Virus record (IMG/VR): IMGVR_UViG_3300027804_000039
Span: 64,001-128,000 of that record
Direction: 5' to 3' (one strand)
From: a virus
Length of the DNA stretch: 64,000 nucleotides
In this document: one piece after another, positions 9,918 to 15,119 of the stretch
Numbering within the stretch: the stretch's first letter is position 1
How the letters are laid out: each line of letters opens with the position of its first letter
Position numbers and translations under genes: made by a program
Notes under the pieces: generated by a model
Seen by the model: the letters and a program-made list of their open reading frames with translations, nothing else
Database searches by the model: none
Told to the model about the DNA's origin: nothing

Positions 9918-10604
9918 TTATGCGATTTCTGGAAACAAACATTCCTGTATGAAAACCCGTACATCTTCCTCATCTAGCCCTAAACTAGCCATTACACGCG
10001 GTGTATGCGGGTTTTGTTTTTGATTGATTGCGTAGTAATTTTGATGTTCTGTAGTATCGTTTGCTGTATTGTTTGTTTCTGCTACAGTACTAAGATAATG
10101 GGCTAGTGTATCTTTAGCCATTTGTATAATTTGTCCTAGTTCTTCGTCGCTTTGTACGTTACCAGCAGCTACCATGCTTGGGCTAAAAATGTTTGTTGCC
10201 CATTCAGGAAGCTGACGCTCTCTGCGCCATTCTAATCGTTTAACGTAGTCTGCAAACCAATCCATCATAGGATGATTTGGGTCTCCTGCTCGACTGTAAT
10301 CATGAAAACAGCCAGTCATTTTGTTTTTGCCTGCTACGACATCAAATCCATATATTGGTGCTGGGTTATGAGTGTGTGGGAAGATGCAACAATGCATCAT
10401 CCACAGGCCTTTTGTTTCTCTAGCATCTACGACGTCAACATGAGCACGACGATAAGAATCGGACCGCCAAACGCGATTAACCCACCCAGGCTGATTAAAA
10501 CGATCCATTCCAGGCTCAAATATTTCTGCGCCAGTTCTATTAAACGAGTCTTCCAAAAGGTGTTGAATATCAATTAACGTATCCCAAACTTTACTTTGTG
10601 ACAT
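9918..10604 (-). CDS. pcyX: Ferredoxin-dependent bilin reductase, PcyX/PcyA type
   Basis: RRAHVDVVD, LWMMHCCIFP, IYGFDVV, LPEWATNIFS, NQKQNPHT motifs; adjacent to heme oxygenase. Asp57/Met69/His71/Asp88 fits my recollection of PcyX, versus Glu/Ile at the first two positions in PcyA. Confidence 0.8.
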   Translation of the reverse strand: MSQSKVWDTLIDIQHLLEDSFNRTGAEIFEPGMDRFNQPGWVNRVWRSDSYRRAHVDVVDARETKGLWMMHCCIFPHTHNPAPIYGFDVVAGKNKMTGCFHDYSRAGDPNHPMMDWFADYVKRLEWRRERQLPEWATNIFSPSMVAAGNVQSDEELGQIIQMAKDTLAHYLSTVAETNNTANDTTEHQNYYAINQKQNPHTPRVMASLGLDEEDVRVFIQECLFPEIA

Positions 10605-11142
10605 CTACTGTACCCATCATATCTTGAAAAAATTCTGTTGCAAAACCAAAACATACTTTTGCTTCGTCTGCTAAATTGTCATCTAACTTTGAACGTAGGA
10701 TATTTTTAATTTGATCAGGATCGCCGTCGAACTTATAGTATTTTCCGTTACCTGGGATACGCTTGGCAATCATTTGCCCGCCTGACAAATCTCCAAAGTG
10801 TCTAACATACAAGTGTGCCAACAGTTTTTTAGGGTCGTCCTTGATTGTCATGATATGATCAATATAACGCTCTGTTGACGGCATTGTTGCAGGAAGGTTA
10901 TCTTGATTTACCCATAGCTCTTTAAAATCTTCTAGGATGCTAGGAGCTCGACGTATTGTAGGATAATCATTTAGTAGTCCGTGCATCATGGCACAGGCTT
11001 CTAACACATCATACATTTTGTGTTGGTTGAATAGGTAAGTAGCATAAATGAGTGGATCAATCTTACCTGAAAATAGAATCTTTACAAACGGCTGTGTTTC
11101 AGCTGTTCTGTGTTGCTCGTGTGTTAAGTCTTTTAGACTCAT
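10591..11142 (-). CDS. hemO: Heme oxygenase (biliverdin-producing)
   Basis: N-terminal His (THEQHRTAE); HLYVRHFGDLSGGQ is the HO-1-type distal helix motif. Confidence 0.9.
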   Translation of the reverse strand: MSLKDLTHEQHRTAETQPFVKILFSGKIDPLIYATYLFNQHKMYDVLEACAMMHGLLNDYPTIRRAPSILEDFKELWVNQDNLPATMPSTERYIDHIMTIKDDPKKLLAHLYVRHFGDLSGGQMIAKRIPGNGKYYKFDGDPDQIKNILRSKLDDNLADEAKVCFGFATEFFQDMMGTVDVTK

Positions 11143-11441
11143 TCTTCCTCCAGTTTTATTTGTAGAGGAAAGCCGTTAGTACGTGCTTGGTGTGTTGCTT
11201 CTACAGCTTTTGCTTCTGCAATTTCAAAACTATAGATACCAGCAATCCCACTGCCTGTTTCATGAACTTGAAACATTATATCTTTGGCTGTATCGTGTGA
11301 ATGTTTAAAAATGTCTACTAGAATAGAAATAACAAATTCCATTGGTGTAGAATCGTCGTTTAAAAGAATAACCTTCCAATTCTTTGGTTCGGAAATCTTT
11401 ACTTTGATCTTTTCATCTAGTTGAATATCAGTACCTGGCAT
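11139..11441 (-). CDS. clpS: ATP-dependent Clp protease adaptor ClpS
   Basis: WKVILLNDDSTPMEFV...VHETGSGIAGIYSFEIAEAK...FPLQIKLEEE. Confidence 0.93.
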   Translation of the reverse strand: MPGTDIQLDEKIKVKISEPKNWKVILLNDDSTPMEFVISILVDIFKHSHDTAKDIMFQVHETGSGIAGIYSFEIAEAKAVEATHQARTNGFPLQIKLEEE

Positions 11442-11460
11442 TTCGTTCTCTTTTAAGTGT

Positions 11461-11478
11461 GGGGGAGTTTCCTCCCCC
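11461..11478 (-). terminator. Probable terminator hairpin after hsp20
   Basis: GGGGGAG-GAAA-CTCCCCC; weak U-tract. Confidence 0.5.
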
Positions 11479-11491
11479 CGGGTTTCAAAAC

Positions 11492-11917
11492 TTATTTAAT
11501 CTCGATTGAACGAGGTTTTAGAGCTTCTGGAACAATACGCTCGATATCAATCTTAAGCATACCGTCCTTAACTTCTGCGCCCCTAACTTCCATATACTCA
11601 GCAAGAGTAAATGTTTGTTCAAAGTCACGTGCGGCTAACCCTCTGTGCAAGTATTCAATTTCAGATTCAGCCTTGACCTTTTCACCTTTAACAGTTAATT
11701 GGTCTTGGTCAACTTCAACAGTAATTTCTGATTTATCAAAACCTGCTACTGCAACTTCGATACCATACTGGTTTTCACTGTACTTAACGATGTTGTATGG
11801 AGGATAGTTGTTTGTTCGTGTTTCAAAGAAACGATCATTGAAAATACGATCAAATCCTACAAGTGCTCTGTTTAGTTGCGCTAATGCGTTTGTGTCAATA
11901 GTTCTTAATTGTGTCAT
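11492..11917 (-). CDS. Small heat shock protein (Hsp20/IbpA-like)
   Basis: NYPPYNIVK...IEVAVAGF...YLHRGLAARDFEQTFTLAE...A.VKDGML.I; C-terminal IEIK (IxI motif). Confidence 0.95.
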   Translation of the reverse strand: MTQLRTIDTNALAQLNRALVGFDRIFNDRFFETRTNNYPPYNIVKYSENQYGIEVAVAGFDKSEITVEVDQDQLTVKGEKVKAESEIEYLHRGLAARDFEQTFTLAEYMEVRGAEVKDGMLKIDIERIVPEALKPRSIEIK

Positions 11918-11974
11918 TTTTATCTCCTTTAATTAAGCAAGATTATTGTAGGGCCCGACCATCGGCACCCTACG
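11915..11974 (-). ncRNA. ROSE-like RNA thermometer (5' UTR of hsp20)
   Basis: Two-hairpin UTR; the second hairpin UCUUGCUU...AAGGAGA pairs the SD with a bulged G (UUGCU motif). Confidence 0.7.
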
Positions 11975-11979
11975 TTTAT

Positions 11980-12008
11980 ATTATATTACTTCTTGTCTTC
12001 TGGATCAA
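11980..12008 (-). promoter_or_regulatory. sigma70-type promoter for hsp20
   Basis: TTGATC-17 nt-TATAAT; the predicted transcription start coincides with the start of the first UTR hairpin. Confidence 0.6.
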
Positions 12009-13887
12009 CTTCTTTGAACTCCGCATTTACGGTTTGTTCGCCCTCAGTTGGTTGGGCAGTTTCAGCAGACGCTTTGGCTTGCTTTTTAGCAAACACTGGG
12101 CTGGCTGCTTCAAACATATTTTGAACTGCTTTGTTGATTGATTCTACATCATCACCATTTCGTGCTTCTTCTACACCCTTAACAGAATCTTCAAACTTAG
12201 TTCTTTCTTCTTCTGTTAATTGATCTTTGAATTCTTCAAAGTCTTTCTTAAGGCTGTGTGTAGCACTCTCTGATTGGTTTTTAGCGTCGATAAGGTCACG
12301 TGCTTTCTTATCAGCTTCTGCATTTGCTTCAGCTTCTTTAATCATACGCTCGATGTCGTCTTTGCTTAAACCACTGTCTGATTTAATAGTGATTTTGTTT
12401 TCTTTACCTGTACCTTTGTCTTTGGCACTGATGTTCATAATACCGTTTGCATCAATATCAAACGTAACTTCAATTTGTGGCATACCGCGTGGAGCAGGAT
12501 TGATGCCATCTAGTTTAAACTCGCCAAGCATTTTATTATACTTGAATAGTTCACGCTCTCCTTGAGCTACTTTAATATCCACGGCAGGTTGATTGTCTTC
12601 TGCTGTTGAGAATGTCTGTGACTTCTTGGTTGGGATAGTTGTGTTCTTCTCAATTAACTTGGTGAAGATTCCACCCATTGTTTCAATTCCCAAGCTCAAC
12701 GGAGTAACGTCTAATAATAGAACGTCTGTCTTGTCGCCTGCTAGAACAGCACCTTGAATTGCGGCACCGGCGGCAACAGCTTCGTCTGGGTTGACGTCTT
12801 TACGTGGTGCTTTGCCAAACAATTTTTCAACTGCTTCTTGCACCTTAGGCATACGTGTTTGTCCACCAACAAGAATTACTTCTGTGATGTCTTTAGCATT
12901 TACGCCGGCGTCTTTGAGCGCAACCTTACATGGCTCAATTGAACGTTGAATTAAATCATCTACCAGTGCTTCAAACTTTGCACGGCTAATTGTAACGTTC
13001 AAGTGCTTAGGACCGCTAGCATCTGCTGTAATGTATGGTAGACTTACTGTTGTTGACTGTGTGCTAGATAATTCAATCTTTGCCTTTTCAGCTGCATCTT
13101 TAAGTCTTTGCAATGCCAACACATCAGTTTTGAGATCAGCACCTGACTCTTTCTTAAATTCATCAACAATGTAGTCCATGAGACGTTGGTCAAAGTCTTC
13201 ACCGCCCAAGAATGTGTCACCGTTTGTGCTCAAAACTTCAATTTGTTTATCGCCATCGATATTTGCGATTTCAATGATGCTGATATCGAATGTACCACCA
13301 CCAAGGTCGTAAACAGCAACTTTGCGATCTTTACTGTCAGCTTTATCAACACCATACGCAAGAGCTGCAGCAGTAGGCTCATTAATAATACGGAGTACTT
13401 CCAAGCCGGCGATTTTTCCAGCATCCTTAGTTGCCTGTCTTTGGCTGTCGTTAAAGTATGCAGGAACTGTGATAACAGCTTTTGTAACTTCTGTACCAAG
13501 ATAATCCTCCGCTGTCTTTTTCATTTTACGTAGAACTTCTGCACTAACTTGTGGTGGTGCTAGTTCTTTGTCTTGAGCACGAATCCATGCATCACCGTTC
13601 TTAGCTTCCATGATTTCGTAAGGCATCAAATCAATGTCTTTCTGAACTTCTTTTTCAGAAAACTTACGACCAATCAAACGCTTGGCTGCATAAATTGTAC
13701 TTTTAGGGTTTGTTACTGCCTGTCGTTTTGCAGTTGCTCCTACAAGAACTTCATCTTGTGTGTAAGCAACGATTGACGGAGTAGTACGGGCGCCTTCAGA
13801 GTTTTCAATAACTTTAGCTACACCGTTTTCTAGAATGGCTACGCAACTATTTGTCGTGCCAAGGTCAATACCAATAATTTTGCTCAT
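11986..13887 (-). CDS. dnaK: Molecular chaperone DnaK (Hsp70)
   Basis: [49 protein letters not shown]; start at ATG 13887 after AAGGAGA. Confidence 0.98.
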
Positions 13888-13938
13888 TTTTATCTCCTTA
13901 TATCTAAGCAAGAATTTAATAGAACCCGAAGCGTTCTA
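13885..13938 (-). ncRNA. ROSE-like RNA thermometer (5' UTR of dnaK)
   Basis: Hairpin UAGAAC-GCUUCGG-GUUCUA, then UCUUGCUUA-GAUA-UAAGGAGA sequestering the SD with a bulged G. Confidence 0.7.
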
Positions 13939-13944
13939 CACTTT

Positions 13945-13952
13945 TATTTATA
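13945..13952 (-). promoter_or_regulatory. T4 late promoter consensus TATAAATA driving dnaK
   Basis: Exact TATAAATA 7 nt upstream of the UTR hairpin. Confidence 0.7.
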
Positions 13953-14529
13953 CCAGATTATTCTGATTCTTTACTTTTTCAATTAAAATTTCAAAATAAC
14001 TCAAATATAAATCATATGCTTTAATGCTAGTAAGCGGCTGTTCAAATTCTTGTAATTTTTTAAATGTTACTTTAGGTAAGTTCCAGTCACTGCCTCTAGA
14101 ATACATAAAATTATAAGCTTCGACTGCCTGTTGATGTTTATCAGCAATTTTAACAATAGTGTGTTCTTCGTCAGTAGGAGGATCTATTCCTAATGCTTCA
14201 TATATAGTTAGCATCAGCTTGTCCTCTAGTTTGCTAATCACGGCATGTATTTCAGGAATGTGCTTTACTGGACTAGGCAAATCGTTTATGTATGCTTCTG
14301 CTGCATCGTGTAATAGGCCGTGTAGCTGTATCCTTTCGCCGTGAGGAGCAAGTTCCTTCATTACTTGAATACAATGCTGTGCCACAGAGTAAGGAATGTA
14401 CGGTATGCTGTGGCCGCTAAAGCGAGGCATCCTACTGAGGCTCCAAGCAATGTCGCTAATTTCAATAGTGCTTGGATCTGGATCTGTTACGTTAATTTTT
14501 CTACCTGAAACTGTTTCAAGGGTCTTCAT
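13948..14529 (-). CDS. HD-domain phosphohydrolase (YfbR/DatZ-like deoxynucleotidase)
   Basis: DIAWSLS..PRFSGH, YSVAQHC, GLLHDAAEAYI.D, IADK. Confidence 0.8.
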   Translation of the reverse strand: MKTLETVSGRKINVTDPDPSTIEISDIAWSLSRMPRFSGHSIPYIPYSVAQHCIQVMKELAPHGERIQLHGLLHDAAEAYINDLPSPVKHIPEIHAVISKLEDKLMLTIYEALGIDPPTDEEHTIVKIADKHQQAVEAYNFMYSRGSDWNLPKVTFKKLQEFEQPLTSIKAYDLYLSYFEILIEKVKNQNNLV

Positions 14530-14531
14530 TA

Positions 14532-15119
14532 TTATCTATCATTCCTAAATGGGGTGATGTAACTGCCGTCACTTGTTGTAGAGCTACGTAATGTATTGTA
14601 AACATTTTGAATCCCCACTGCTTGGTTCCAAGCATCTTCTAACGCATGATGTTTTGTAACGGGAGGGCGGTGAGGATTGATGCCTAAATCAAATGCTGTG
14701 CGTACATCACGAACTTGCCAGAAACTCCAAGGGATGGCTTTGCCTACTCTTTTGAATGCAGTTTCGCAAATTGGTACGTCAAATGCAGCACCGTTGCTCC
14801 ACACACGTTTGGCGCCCCAACAAAATTTATAAAGTTGGTCCATAGCATCTTTAATGTGAAGTCTGTCGGCGCCTTCACTAAATGCTTCGTCTTGGACTGC
14901 TTGGTCTTGTTGCCCCCACCACGCAATAGTGTCATCGTTAACAACTAATCCAATTTCATCGCAGCTATCTAAATTGACACGGACATAAAAACTGTCCATT
15001 GCGGGTTCTTCGACATCTTTACCAAAAGGATCAAATTTTACTGCTCCAATGGTAAGAATGGCGGCATCAGTTGATGTCGCCAATGTTTCTAAGTCAATCA
15101 TTACATCTGTATTAGCCAT
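14532..15119 (-). CDS. DEDDh 3'-5' exonuclease (Rv2179c/DUF5051-like)
   Basis: MIDLETL, WSNGAAFD, RDVRT, HHALEDA. Confidence 0.85.
   Translation of the reverse strand: MANTDVMIDLETLATSTDAAILTIGAVKFDPFGKDVEEPAMDSFYVRVNLDSCDEIGLVVNDDTIAWWGQQDQAVQDEAFSEGADRLHIKDAMDQLYKFCWGAKRVWSNGAAFDVPICETAFKRVGKAIPWSFWQVRDVRTAFDLGINPHRPPVTKHHALEDAWNQAVGIQNVYNTLRSSTTSDGSYITPFRNDR

Follow-up and report, generated by a model that had tools for sequence, protein, structure and literature searches.

The 64,000-nucleotide stretch of DNA investigated in this study, in the following termed the window, comprises positions 64001-128000 of the 191-kb IMG/VR virus record IMGVR_UViG_3300027804_000039 and harbours the two chaperone genes hsp20 and dnaK, whose short 5' untranslated regions (5' UTRs, here also called leaders) are the subject of this work. 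The source is a giant lake-water phage, and since a record of this size was estimated by CheckV to be only about 50% complete, it belongs to a jumbo phage. Besides the chaperones, the window encodes a virion structural protein and a ribonucleotide reductase, both assigned with PHROGs, and in the part surrounding hsp20 and dnaK every gene resides on the minus strand, to which all coordinates below refer. The product of hsp20 (11492-11917), 141 amino acids in length, is a small heat-shock protein of the IbpA type, which is recognized by the Pfam HSP20 model with an E-value of 2.4e-18 and obtains 128 bits with the NCBIfam IbpA model NF008013, under its cut-off of 212 bits. The protein shares 46% identity with IbpA from Salmonella and retains the equivalents of its residues Y34 and R93. 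The adjacent dnaK (11986-13887) encodes an Hsp70 protein of 633 amino acids counted from the ATG at 13887, with scores of 861 bits for Pfam HSP70 and of 984 bits for the NCBIfam DnaK equivalog, which is over the cut-off, and with 67-71% identity to DnaK proteins of Burkholderiales.

An original prediction, which was made from the letters of the window, had described twin ROSE-like RNA thermometers in front of both genes, each with a stable 5' hairpin followed by a second hairpin that sequesters the Shine-Dalgarno (SD) sequence. This two-hairpin plan is found in both leaders, each of about 55 nucleotides, with the coordinates, the bulged G and the anti-SD and SD strands all present on the minus strand. 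In case of hsp20, the stable and G+C-rich hairpin 1 (11973-11948; GUAGGGU-G-CCGA/UCGG-G-CCCUAC) is located at the 5' end and contains a core in which a conserved U-G pair, a bulged G and a C-G pair follow each other (UGCC...GGG). Hairpin 2 (11942-11923) is formed by the anti-SD strand UCUUGCUU (11942-11935) with a bulged G at 11938, the loop AAUUA and the SD strand AAGGAGA (11929-11923), and it precedes the AUG start codon at 11917. A sigma70-type promoter (12008-11980) with 10 of 12 matches to the consensus is found upstream, its -35 element TTGATC (12008-12003) residing within the final codons of dnaK and its -10 element TATAAT (11985-11980), after a spacer of 17 nucleotides, beginning directly past the dnaK stop codon. 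Six bases separate the -10 box from hairpin 1, which suggests a transcription start near G11973, the first base of this hairpin, 7 nucleotides past the box. A promoter of the general form TTGAN-16..18-TAnnnT is present in 47 of 59 distinct upstream regions of related hsp20 genes.

The leader of dnaK follows the same plan. Its hairpin 1 (13939-13919; GUAGAAC-G-C(UUCG)G-GUUCUAU), with the loop C(UUCG)G and a bulged G at 13932, contains a bulged-G core that is identical to that of hsp20 and it is kept, with covariation, in the dnaK leaders of related loci. In hairpin 2 (13913-13893), the strand UCUUGCUUA (13913-13905) with the bulged G at 13909 is connected by the loop GAUA to UAAGGAGA (13900-13893), and the AUG start codon is located at 13887. 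In both SD hairpins the strands could pair as U-A, C-G, U-A, U-G, bulged G, C-G, U-A and U-A. In place of a sigma70-type element, a putative promoter box of the T4-late type, TATAAATA (13952-13945), precedes the dnaK leader and overlaps the end of the HD-domain gene upstream at its stop codon. Its ATAAATA sequence recurs in 55 of 55 distinct upstream regions of related dnaK genes and its position points to a transcription start near G13939, again the first base of hairpin 1. The expectation that both transcripts start at their first hairpin is thus borne out as far as promoter positions can tell.

The relationship of both leaders to the ROSE family is reflected in their alignment to the covariance models in Rfam. 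Whereas a search of the whole window against Rfam at gathering thresholds returned no match, a permissive search of a 2.3-kb region with ROSE_3 (RF02523) aligned all 69 model positions to each of the two leaders, including the unusual core of hairpin 1 (A-U, U-G, bulged G, C-G, C-G). The scores of 31.6 bits for hsp20 (E = 5e-4) and of 23.9 bits for dnaK (E = 0.04) are both under the gathering cut-off of 43 bits, so that neither phage leader belongs to the curated family by the criterion of Rfam. For comparison, the validated ibpA leader of Pseudomonas aeruginosa, taken from an unverified 'phage' record, obtains 69.2 bits with ROSE_3 and the leader of Salmonella ibpA 94.9 bits with ROSE_2. The proposed check with the ROSE models has in this way confirmed the full-length architecture, although not at the level of curated membership. 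As far as can be judged from sequence and potential pairing, the phage leaders resemble ROSE_3 in every architectural feature. The ROSE signature U(U/C)GCU is contained in UCUUGCUU, which faces AAGGAGA with G11938 and its counterpart G13909 left unpaired, and the elements are located directly 5' of an IbpA-type hsp20 and of dnaK, the latter a heat-shock gene but not a classical target of the kind represented by small heat-shock genes.

Within the phage record, the two leaders stand alone. The pattern TCTTGCTT-N2-12-AGGAG is found at two sites in the window, where 0.02 would be expected, and at no further site across the 191-kb record. A covariance model built from 56 hsp20 leaders, and containing no dnaK leader in its training set (R1), equally recovers exactly two sites in the record, the hsp20 leader with 86 bits and the dnaK leader with 45.5 bits (E = 2.5e-7). 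Both leaders are evidently related to each other. Their homology to the short ROSE-like leader of ibpA, together with a role as cis-regulatory elements, is in our view very probable.

Relatives of the phage Hsp20 are numerous, with at least 171 in IMG/VR, mostly from freshwater metagenomes, and thousands in a large protein collection. In nearly all of 80 fetched loci dnaK is located directly upstream of hsp20 and leaders are kept on both genes. Searched across 55 non-redundant related loci (431 kb), R1 yields 103 matches, all of which are leaders of hsp20 or dnaK. One short contig (L058, IMGVR_UViG_3300023206_000028, 6009 bases) shows matches with identical scores at 1935-2009 on the plus and 4001-4075 on the minus strand and is probably an inverted duplication that arose as an assembly artefact. 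Pairing statistics were obtained from 97 distinct related leader sequences; an alignment of the mixed leaders by MAFFT placed the SD strand in shifting registers and was not used for model building. Taken over the whole structure, 97.4% of cells are paired, and shifting the partners by one, two or three columns lowers this value to 51-62%. In hairpin 1, where 96.5% of cells are paired, both-sided changes are found in 8 of 10 pairs. Hairpin 2 is paired in 98.5% of cells and almost invariant, its sole variation being a change of UUGCU to UCGCU, which replaces the U-G by a C-G pair and constitutes the alternative already contained in the ROSE consensus U(U/C)GCU. The strand CU(U/C)GCU thus stays nearly constant amid variable non-coding sequence and, as a consequence of this near-invariance, the SD helix shows no compensatory changes among these leaders. 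Its support consequently derives from conserved complementarity and homology rather than from covariation, and the covariation anticipated for homologous UTRs has materialized in the first hairpin only. Eight dnaK leaders (L021, L024, L031, L043, L069-L071 and L075) contain three hairpins with an additional middle hairpin of the GGGCAUGGUGCCC type, and most of them carry ACUCGCUU in place of UCUUGCUU. ROSE elements have been described with 2-4 hairpins (PMC11182007), a range that covers both the two- and the three-hairpin forms.

Cellular counterparts of the leaders were found in Burkholderiales. A scan with an alignment of phage Hsp20 proteins over one genome per prokaryote species identified genes of the IbpA type in Orrella sp. 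and Candidatus Protistobacter heckmanni with 47-50% identity, and a further search of 31 Burkholderiales genomes yielded five such genes, one of them being the Protistobacter gene again. All six genes are preceded by a sigma32-like promoter (CTTGAAA, 13-15 nucleotides, CC..AT.T) and by a leader with a bulged-G hairpin 1 and U(U/C)GCUU opposite (A)AGGA(G). The bacterial hairpin 1 comes in two sequence variants, which are both present in phages. These betaproteobacterial leaders (L086, L087 and L139-L142) remain below the ROSE_3 cut-off, with 24.3 bits for L087, and they are probably unannotated in genome records. A different situation was encountered at dnaK. In 29 Burkholderiales dnaK upstream regions, CTYGCT was not found within 60 nucleotides of the start in a single case (or in 0 of 28 regions if L123, which originates from the unpublished genome G028, is left out), 7 of the 29 regions contain the exact sigma32-type consensus pattern, and most others a -35-like element of the CTTGAA type. 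The notion that a ROSE element on dnaK is unusual is thus supported. A phage-derived model (R2) gave no match in 151 Burkholderiales genomes and missed even the known leader in G002, which makes this search uninformative on the bacterial distribution, and the loose pattern CTYGCT-N2-12-AGGAG was in two bacterial genomes no more frequent than a reversed control. The simplest history suggested by these sequences would be that a phage acquired ibpA together with its leader and lost the sigma32 promoter, and that dnaK received the leader at a later stage within the phage lineage.

The leader is also encountered in cultured phages. Homologues of Hsp20 were detected by tblastn in 506 phage records, mostly of cyanophages, and R1 matches 5' of hsp20 in Methylophilales phage Melnitz (48.9 bits, behind a TATAAATA box), Prochlorococcus phage P-SSM4 (32.1 bits), Synechococcus phage S-SKS1 (31.0 bits) and Sinorhizobium phage Phosso (29.5 bits), while the match in Pelagibacter phage Mosig (27.6 bits) is confined to hairpin 2. 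A blastn search of the region against the phage collection returned similarity at 65-70% in the dnaK coding sequence only and no close phage.

The predicted folding of the hsp20 leader is in general agreement with a thermometer. Its minimum-energy fold (ViennaRNA) consists between 5 and 50 °C of exactly two hairpins and the bulged G, with the SD contained in the second, although the consensus calculated by RNAalifold from the leader alignment consists of hairpin 1 only. The predicted accessibility of the SD is 0.04 at 5 °C and increases to 0.30 at 42 °C, and the same calculation applied at 25 and 42 °C gives 0.06 and 0.24 for the leader of P. aeruginosa and 0.14 and 0.27 for that of phage hsp20. 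As isolated elements, the second hairpins are predicted to have stabilities of -5.9 kcal/mol at 20 °C and -2.9 kcal/mol at 37 °C in hsp20 and of -6.6 and -3.7 kcal/mol in dnaK. Deletion of the bulged G is predicted to stabilize hairpin 2 by about 4 kcal/mol; in Pseudomonas, mutations that stabilize the equivalent hairpin, including single-nucleotide deletions, abolish induction (PMC3669281). For dnaK the claim of an SD-sequestering hairpin is less secure, since in the full leader the ROSE hairpin 2 ceases to be part of the minimum-energy fold beyond 15 °C. The analysis of folding over temperature thus leaves hsp20 resembling the validated leader of P. aeruginosa, while the behaviour of dnaK and of most relatives is ambiguous. 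The underlying nearest-neighbour models omit the non-canonical interactions of ROSE hairpins and mis-fold the validated Salmonella leader in a control, and folding calculations of this kind therefore neither prove nor refute the mechanism.

Taken together, both leaders are best explained as phage-borne copies of the short ROSE-like leader with two hairpins that proteobacterial ibpA genes carry, and we regard it as reasonably probable that they act as thermometers, the best supported of the mechanisms considered. In the mechanism that we envisage, transcription would begin at hairpin 1 or a base or two earlier, and this hairpin would form a stable, non-melting 5' cap, which probably protects the mRNA and aids the folding of the weak hairpin 2. 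At low temperature, the U(U/C)GCU-containing strand UCUUGCUU would pair with the SD AAGGAGA around the bulged G and limit the binding of the 30S subunit. Since this helix is short, A+U-rich and interrupted, a rise in temperature would open it progressively and lead to the synthesis of more Hsp20 and DnaK. The phage would thereby have retained translational control while the sigma32 promoter of the bacterial genes was exchanged for a sigma70-type promoter in case of hsp20, which would be expressed early, and for the T4-late-type box in case of dnaK. The replacement of the bacterial promoters agrees with the claimed independence from sigma32, and it would be reasonable to infer that the phage senses temperature directly and without this factor.

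Several observations weigh against this proposal. Besides the ROSE_3 scores under the cut-off, the missing compensatory changes in the SD helix and the RNAalifold consensus that lacks hairpin 2, these concern alternative structures that emerge once coding sequence is taken into account. In dnaK, the predicted partner of the anti-SD strand at temperatures of 20 °C or more is AUGAGCAA, which comprises the AUG and codons 2-3, in a helix of UUGCUUA with UGAGCAA (13880-13911). With 18-30 nucleotides of coding sequence included, no more than about 18% of the related hsp20 leaders are dominated by the ROSE hairpin. Here the competing helix AGUUCUU:AAGAACU involves the Arg-Thr codons 5-7 and is favoured by 0-4.4 kcal/mol at 20 °C; its leader strand lies just 5' of the anti-SD and extends into it, so that the helix spans approximately positions -28 to +20 around the hsp20 ATG. 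It is predicted in most relatives (such as L005, L009, L015, L024 and L029) and is weak in the window (11890-11945). In a ranking by predicted SD occlusion at 15 °C among the 38 window genes with a recognisable SD, hsp20 takes the third place and dnaK the 20th, and dnaK is thus not singled out. Moreover, the temperature response of the leaders is a predicted one, and lake phages rarely face heat shock within a single infection, so that temperature is perhaps not the relevant signal.

In an alternative explanation, the leader would mainly serve as an operator for the IbpA-like Hsp20 of the phage. In such a scheme, free Hsp20 would bind the leaders of hsp20 and dnaK and block their translation, until unfolded or aggregating proteins, for example late virion proteins, titrate the chaperone and free both mRNAs, the signal being the folding load. 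A precedent is found in the IbpA proteins of E. coli, Cedecea and Vibrio, which bind their own ROSE-type 5' UTRs and repress translation, and where R93 is essential and Y34 has to be aromatic (PMC10474464). The equivalents of both residues are kept in all aligned IbpA-type proteins from phages and Burkholderiales. Of similar relevance is the bulged-G core of hairpin 1 (YGC...GG), which is invariant from Pseudomonas to the phages and thus under more constraint than a stabilizing stem would require, and the presence of one leader on two chaperone genes would suit a common trans-acting regulator. However, the cationic pair R97/K98, which is required in E. coli IbpA (PMC10474464), is replaced by Q and T in the protein of the window, with K or R at the first position in some relatives, and binding by a phage or betaproteobacterial protein is at this stage hypothetical. 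As the principal function of the leaders we consider this scheme doubtful, although it would be compatible with a thermometer. With similar reservation, it can be conceived that the ibpA leader has become the operator of a self-contained phage chaperone regulon of hsp20 and dnaK, which would be read by temperature and by the phage's own Hsp20, and whose protein synthesis would track the folding load of the virion across early and late gene classes and independently of the host sigma32.

A simpler proposal would dispense with sensing altogether. Hairpin 1 would confer stability on the 5' end of the message and hairpin 2 would damp translation in a constitutive manner, in a module that was inherited with ibpA and reused on dnaK. 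A stabilizing role has been proposed for the 5'-terminal stem-loop of the Pseudomonas ibpA mRNA (PMC3669281), the predicted SD accessibility shifts only gradually with temperature, and many other genes of the window have partly paired SDs. Conversely, two features that make the helix weaker, the bulged G and the U-G pair, persist in nearly all 97 distinct leaders although they would be needless for a fixed attenuator, and for the equally designed Pseudomonas homologue a function as thermometer is proven (PMC3669281), which together render a purely constitutive element unlikely. The alternative helices described above could in turn be part of a two-state switch, in which the anti-SD would alternate between the SD in an off-state and a partner at the beginning of the coding region, which is AAGAACU for hsp20 and AUGAGCAA for dnaK, with the balance being set by translation or temperature. 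Apart from being predicted in most relatives, such helices find a correlate in one apparent compensatory change, where an A to U substitution in the leader accompanies a change of the Thr codon from ACU to ACA (L025, L039, L042 and L044), and in codon 2 of dnaK, which is AGC in nearly all leaders of the UUGCU type and AGU, UCU or UCA in five of the UCGCU type. Yet the partner sequences encode conserved residues, the alternative hsp20 helix is weak not only in the window but also in its closest relatives, the covariation is broken in L058-L060, L046, L062 and L080, and UCGCU coincides with AGC in L030 and L036. The support from sequence variation is thus weak and partly contradictory, and we judge a switch of this kind to be very improbable. 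Finally, each hairpin 1 is located just past the stop codon of the upstream gene, as would be expected for a terminator. A terminator was rejected for either hairpin, since the tails AAUAAUCUU and UAAAUUCUU contain no T-run, no terminator was called on the minus strand and conserved promoters are located upstream of the hairpins. A chance resemblance to ROSE elements is at odds with the two motif occurrences where 0.02 are expected, with the match of the hsp20-trained model to the dnaK leader and with the presence of the leader in bacteria and cultured phages, and both explanations can be considered effectively refuted.

The assignment of the dnaK promoter is embedded in a wider pattern. On the coding strand of the 191-kb record, ATAAATA is mostly found about 5-50 nucleotides upstream of start codons or tRNA genes, which marks it as a putative promoter box of the T4-late type with a presumed start 5-6 nucleotides downstream. 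Further sites in the window are located at 1228, 9921, 17827, 20057, 22811, 29440, 31556, 34007, 36027, 44843, 46977, 49088 and 63715. The sequence frequently resides 4-5 nucleotides before an ATG that lacks an SD, and many late genes thus look leaderless. A view of ATAAATAA as a chance A+T-rich word was rejected, since it occurs once in the window compared to 6.9 expected occurrences and since ATAAATA is mostly found shortly 5' of gene starts.

In their genomic surroundings, the chaperone genes are clustered with genes assigned by Pfam and NCBIfam to ClpS (11139-11441), a heme oxygenase (10591-11142) and the HD-domain protein upstream of dnaK (13948-14529), a putative phosphohydrolase, and with a Rv2179c-like 3'-5' exoribonuclease, the entire cluster extending from 10591 to 15119. 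In Sinorhizobium phage Phosso (L091), ClpS is located two genes past the small heat-shock protein, and this gene order together with the cluster of the window hints at a conserved phage proteostasis module. The Moraphages, predicted phages of Bacteroidota, carry DnaK and Hsp20, with no thermometer mentioned in their description (PMC12619734), and they are probably of little help for the interpretation of the leaders.

If the leaders act like their bacterial homologues, large aquatic phages would control their chaperones post-transcriptionally and without the heat-shock sigma factor of the host. Cultured cyanophages as well as phages infecting OM43 and rhizobia are among the relatives in which hsp20 bears the leader. 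ROSE-like elements would in that case extend to viruses and to an Hsp70 gene, and the locus would provide a clear case of a regulatory RNA that was captured with its gene, had its promoter swapped and was then copied onto a second gene. It would also offer a testable regulatory logic for hsp20, which is very common in the genomes of cyanophages. In the searchable literature, which leaves most subscription journals outside its coverage, we found neither a ROSE-like example from a phage nor a thermometer on hsp20 of phages or cyanophages, and a report that extends ROSE-like elements to ABC-transporter genes mentions neither phages nor dnaK.

Among known systems, the closest resemblance is found to the ROSE-like thermometer of Pseudomonas ibpA (ROSE_3, RF02523; Krajewski et al., 2013; PMC3669281). 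The leaders share a 5' UTR of about 55-62 nucleotides, a G+C-rich hairpin I at the extreme 5' end with the U-G, bulged-G and C-G core (AUGCCGA.../...UCGGGU), a hairpin II in which U(U/C)GCU pairs with the SD around a bulged G, an unpaired AUG and an IbpA-type protein encoded downstream. In contrast to Pseudomonas, hairpin II of the phage is more A+U-rich and devoid of flanking G-C pairs, the promoters are of the sigma70 and T4-late type instead of sigma32, and the leaders are viral, with one copy located on dnaK and a role as thermometer that is predicted. The leaders of the IbpA-type genes in Burkholderiales (Orrella sp., Candidatus Protistobacter heckmanni and four further genomes), which carry no ROSE annotation in Rfam, precede genes whose products are, at 43-50% identity, the nearest relatives of the phage Hsp20 found among cellular organisms. 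These leaders share the two-hairpin layout with the phages, including the hairpin 1 variants GGGCGCC...GGGCCC and GGUGCUC...GAGGCC, but are combined with sigma32-like promoters of the form CTTGAAA-N13-15-CC..AT and were found on ibpA only.

The RNA thermometers already on record in phages, lambda cIII, blyA of SPbeta and a sigma70 gene of gut Caudoviricetes, the latter two of the fourU type (PMC11182007, PMC10586365), resemble the leaders of hsp20 and dnaK as phage-borne structures in the 5' UTR for which a control of translation by temperature has been proposed or demonstrated. Unlike the elements described here, they belong to the alternative-structure switch and fourU classes and none of them is located on a chaperone gene. 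A further parallel is provided by the self-repression of IbpA in gamma-proteobacteria (Cheng, Miwa and Taguchi, 2023; PMC10474464; PMC10410725), where, as in the phage, the gene for an IbpA-type protein follows a ROSE-type leader. In E. coli, the protein also targets ibpB and rpoH (PMC10474464; PMC10410725). The phage departs from this system in the positions equivalent to R97 and K98, which are not cationic, and in the identity of the second gene that carries the leader, which is dnaK.

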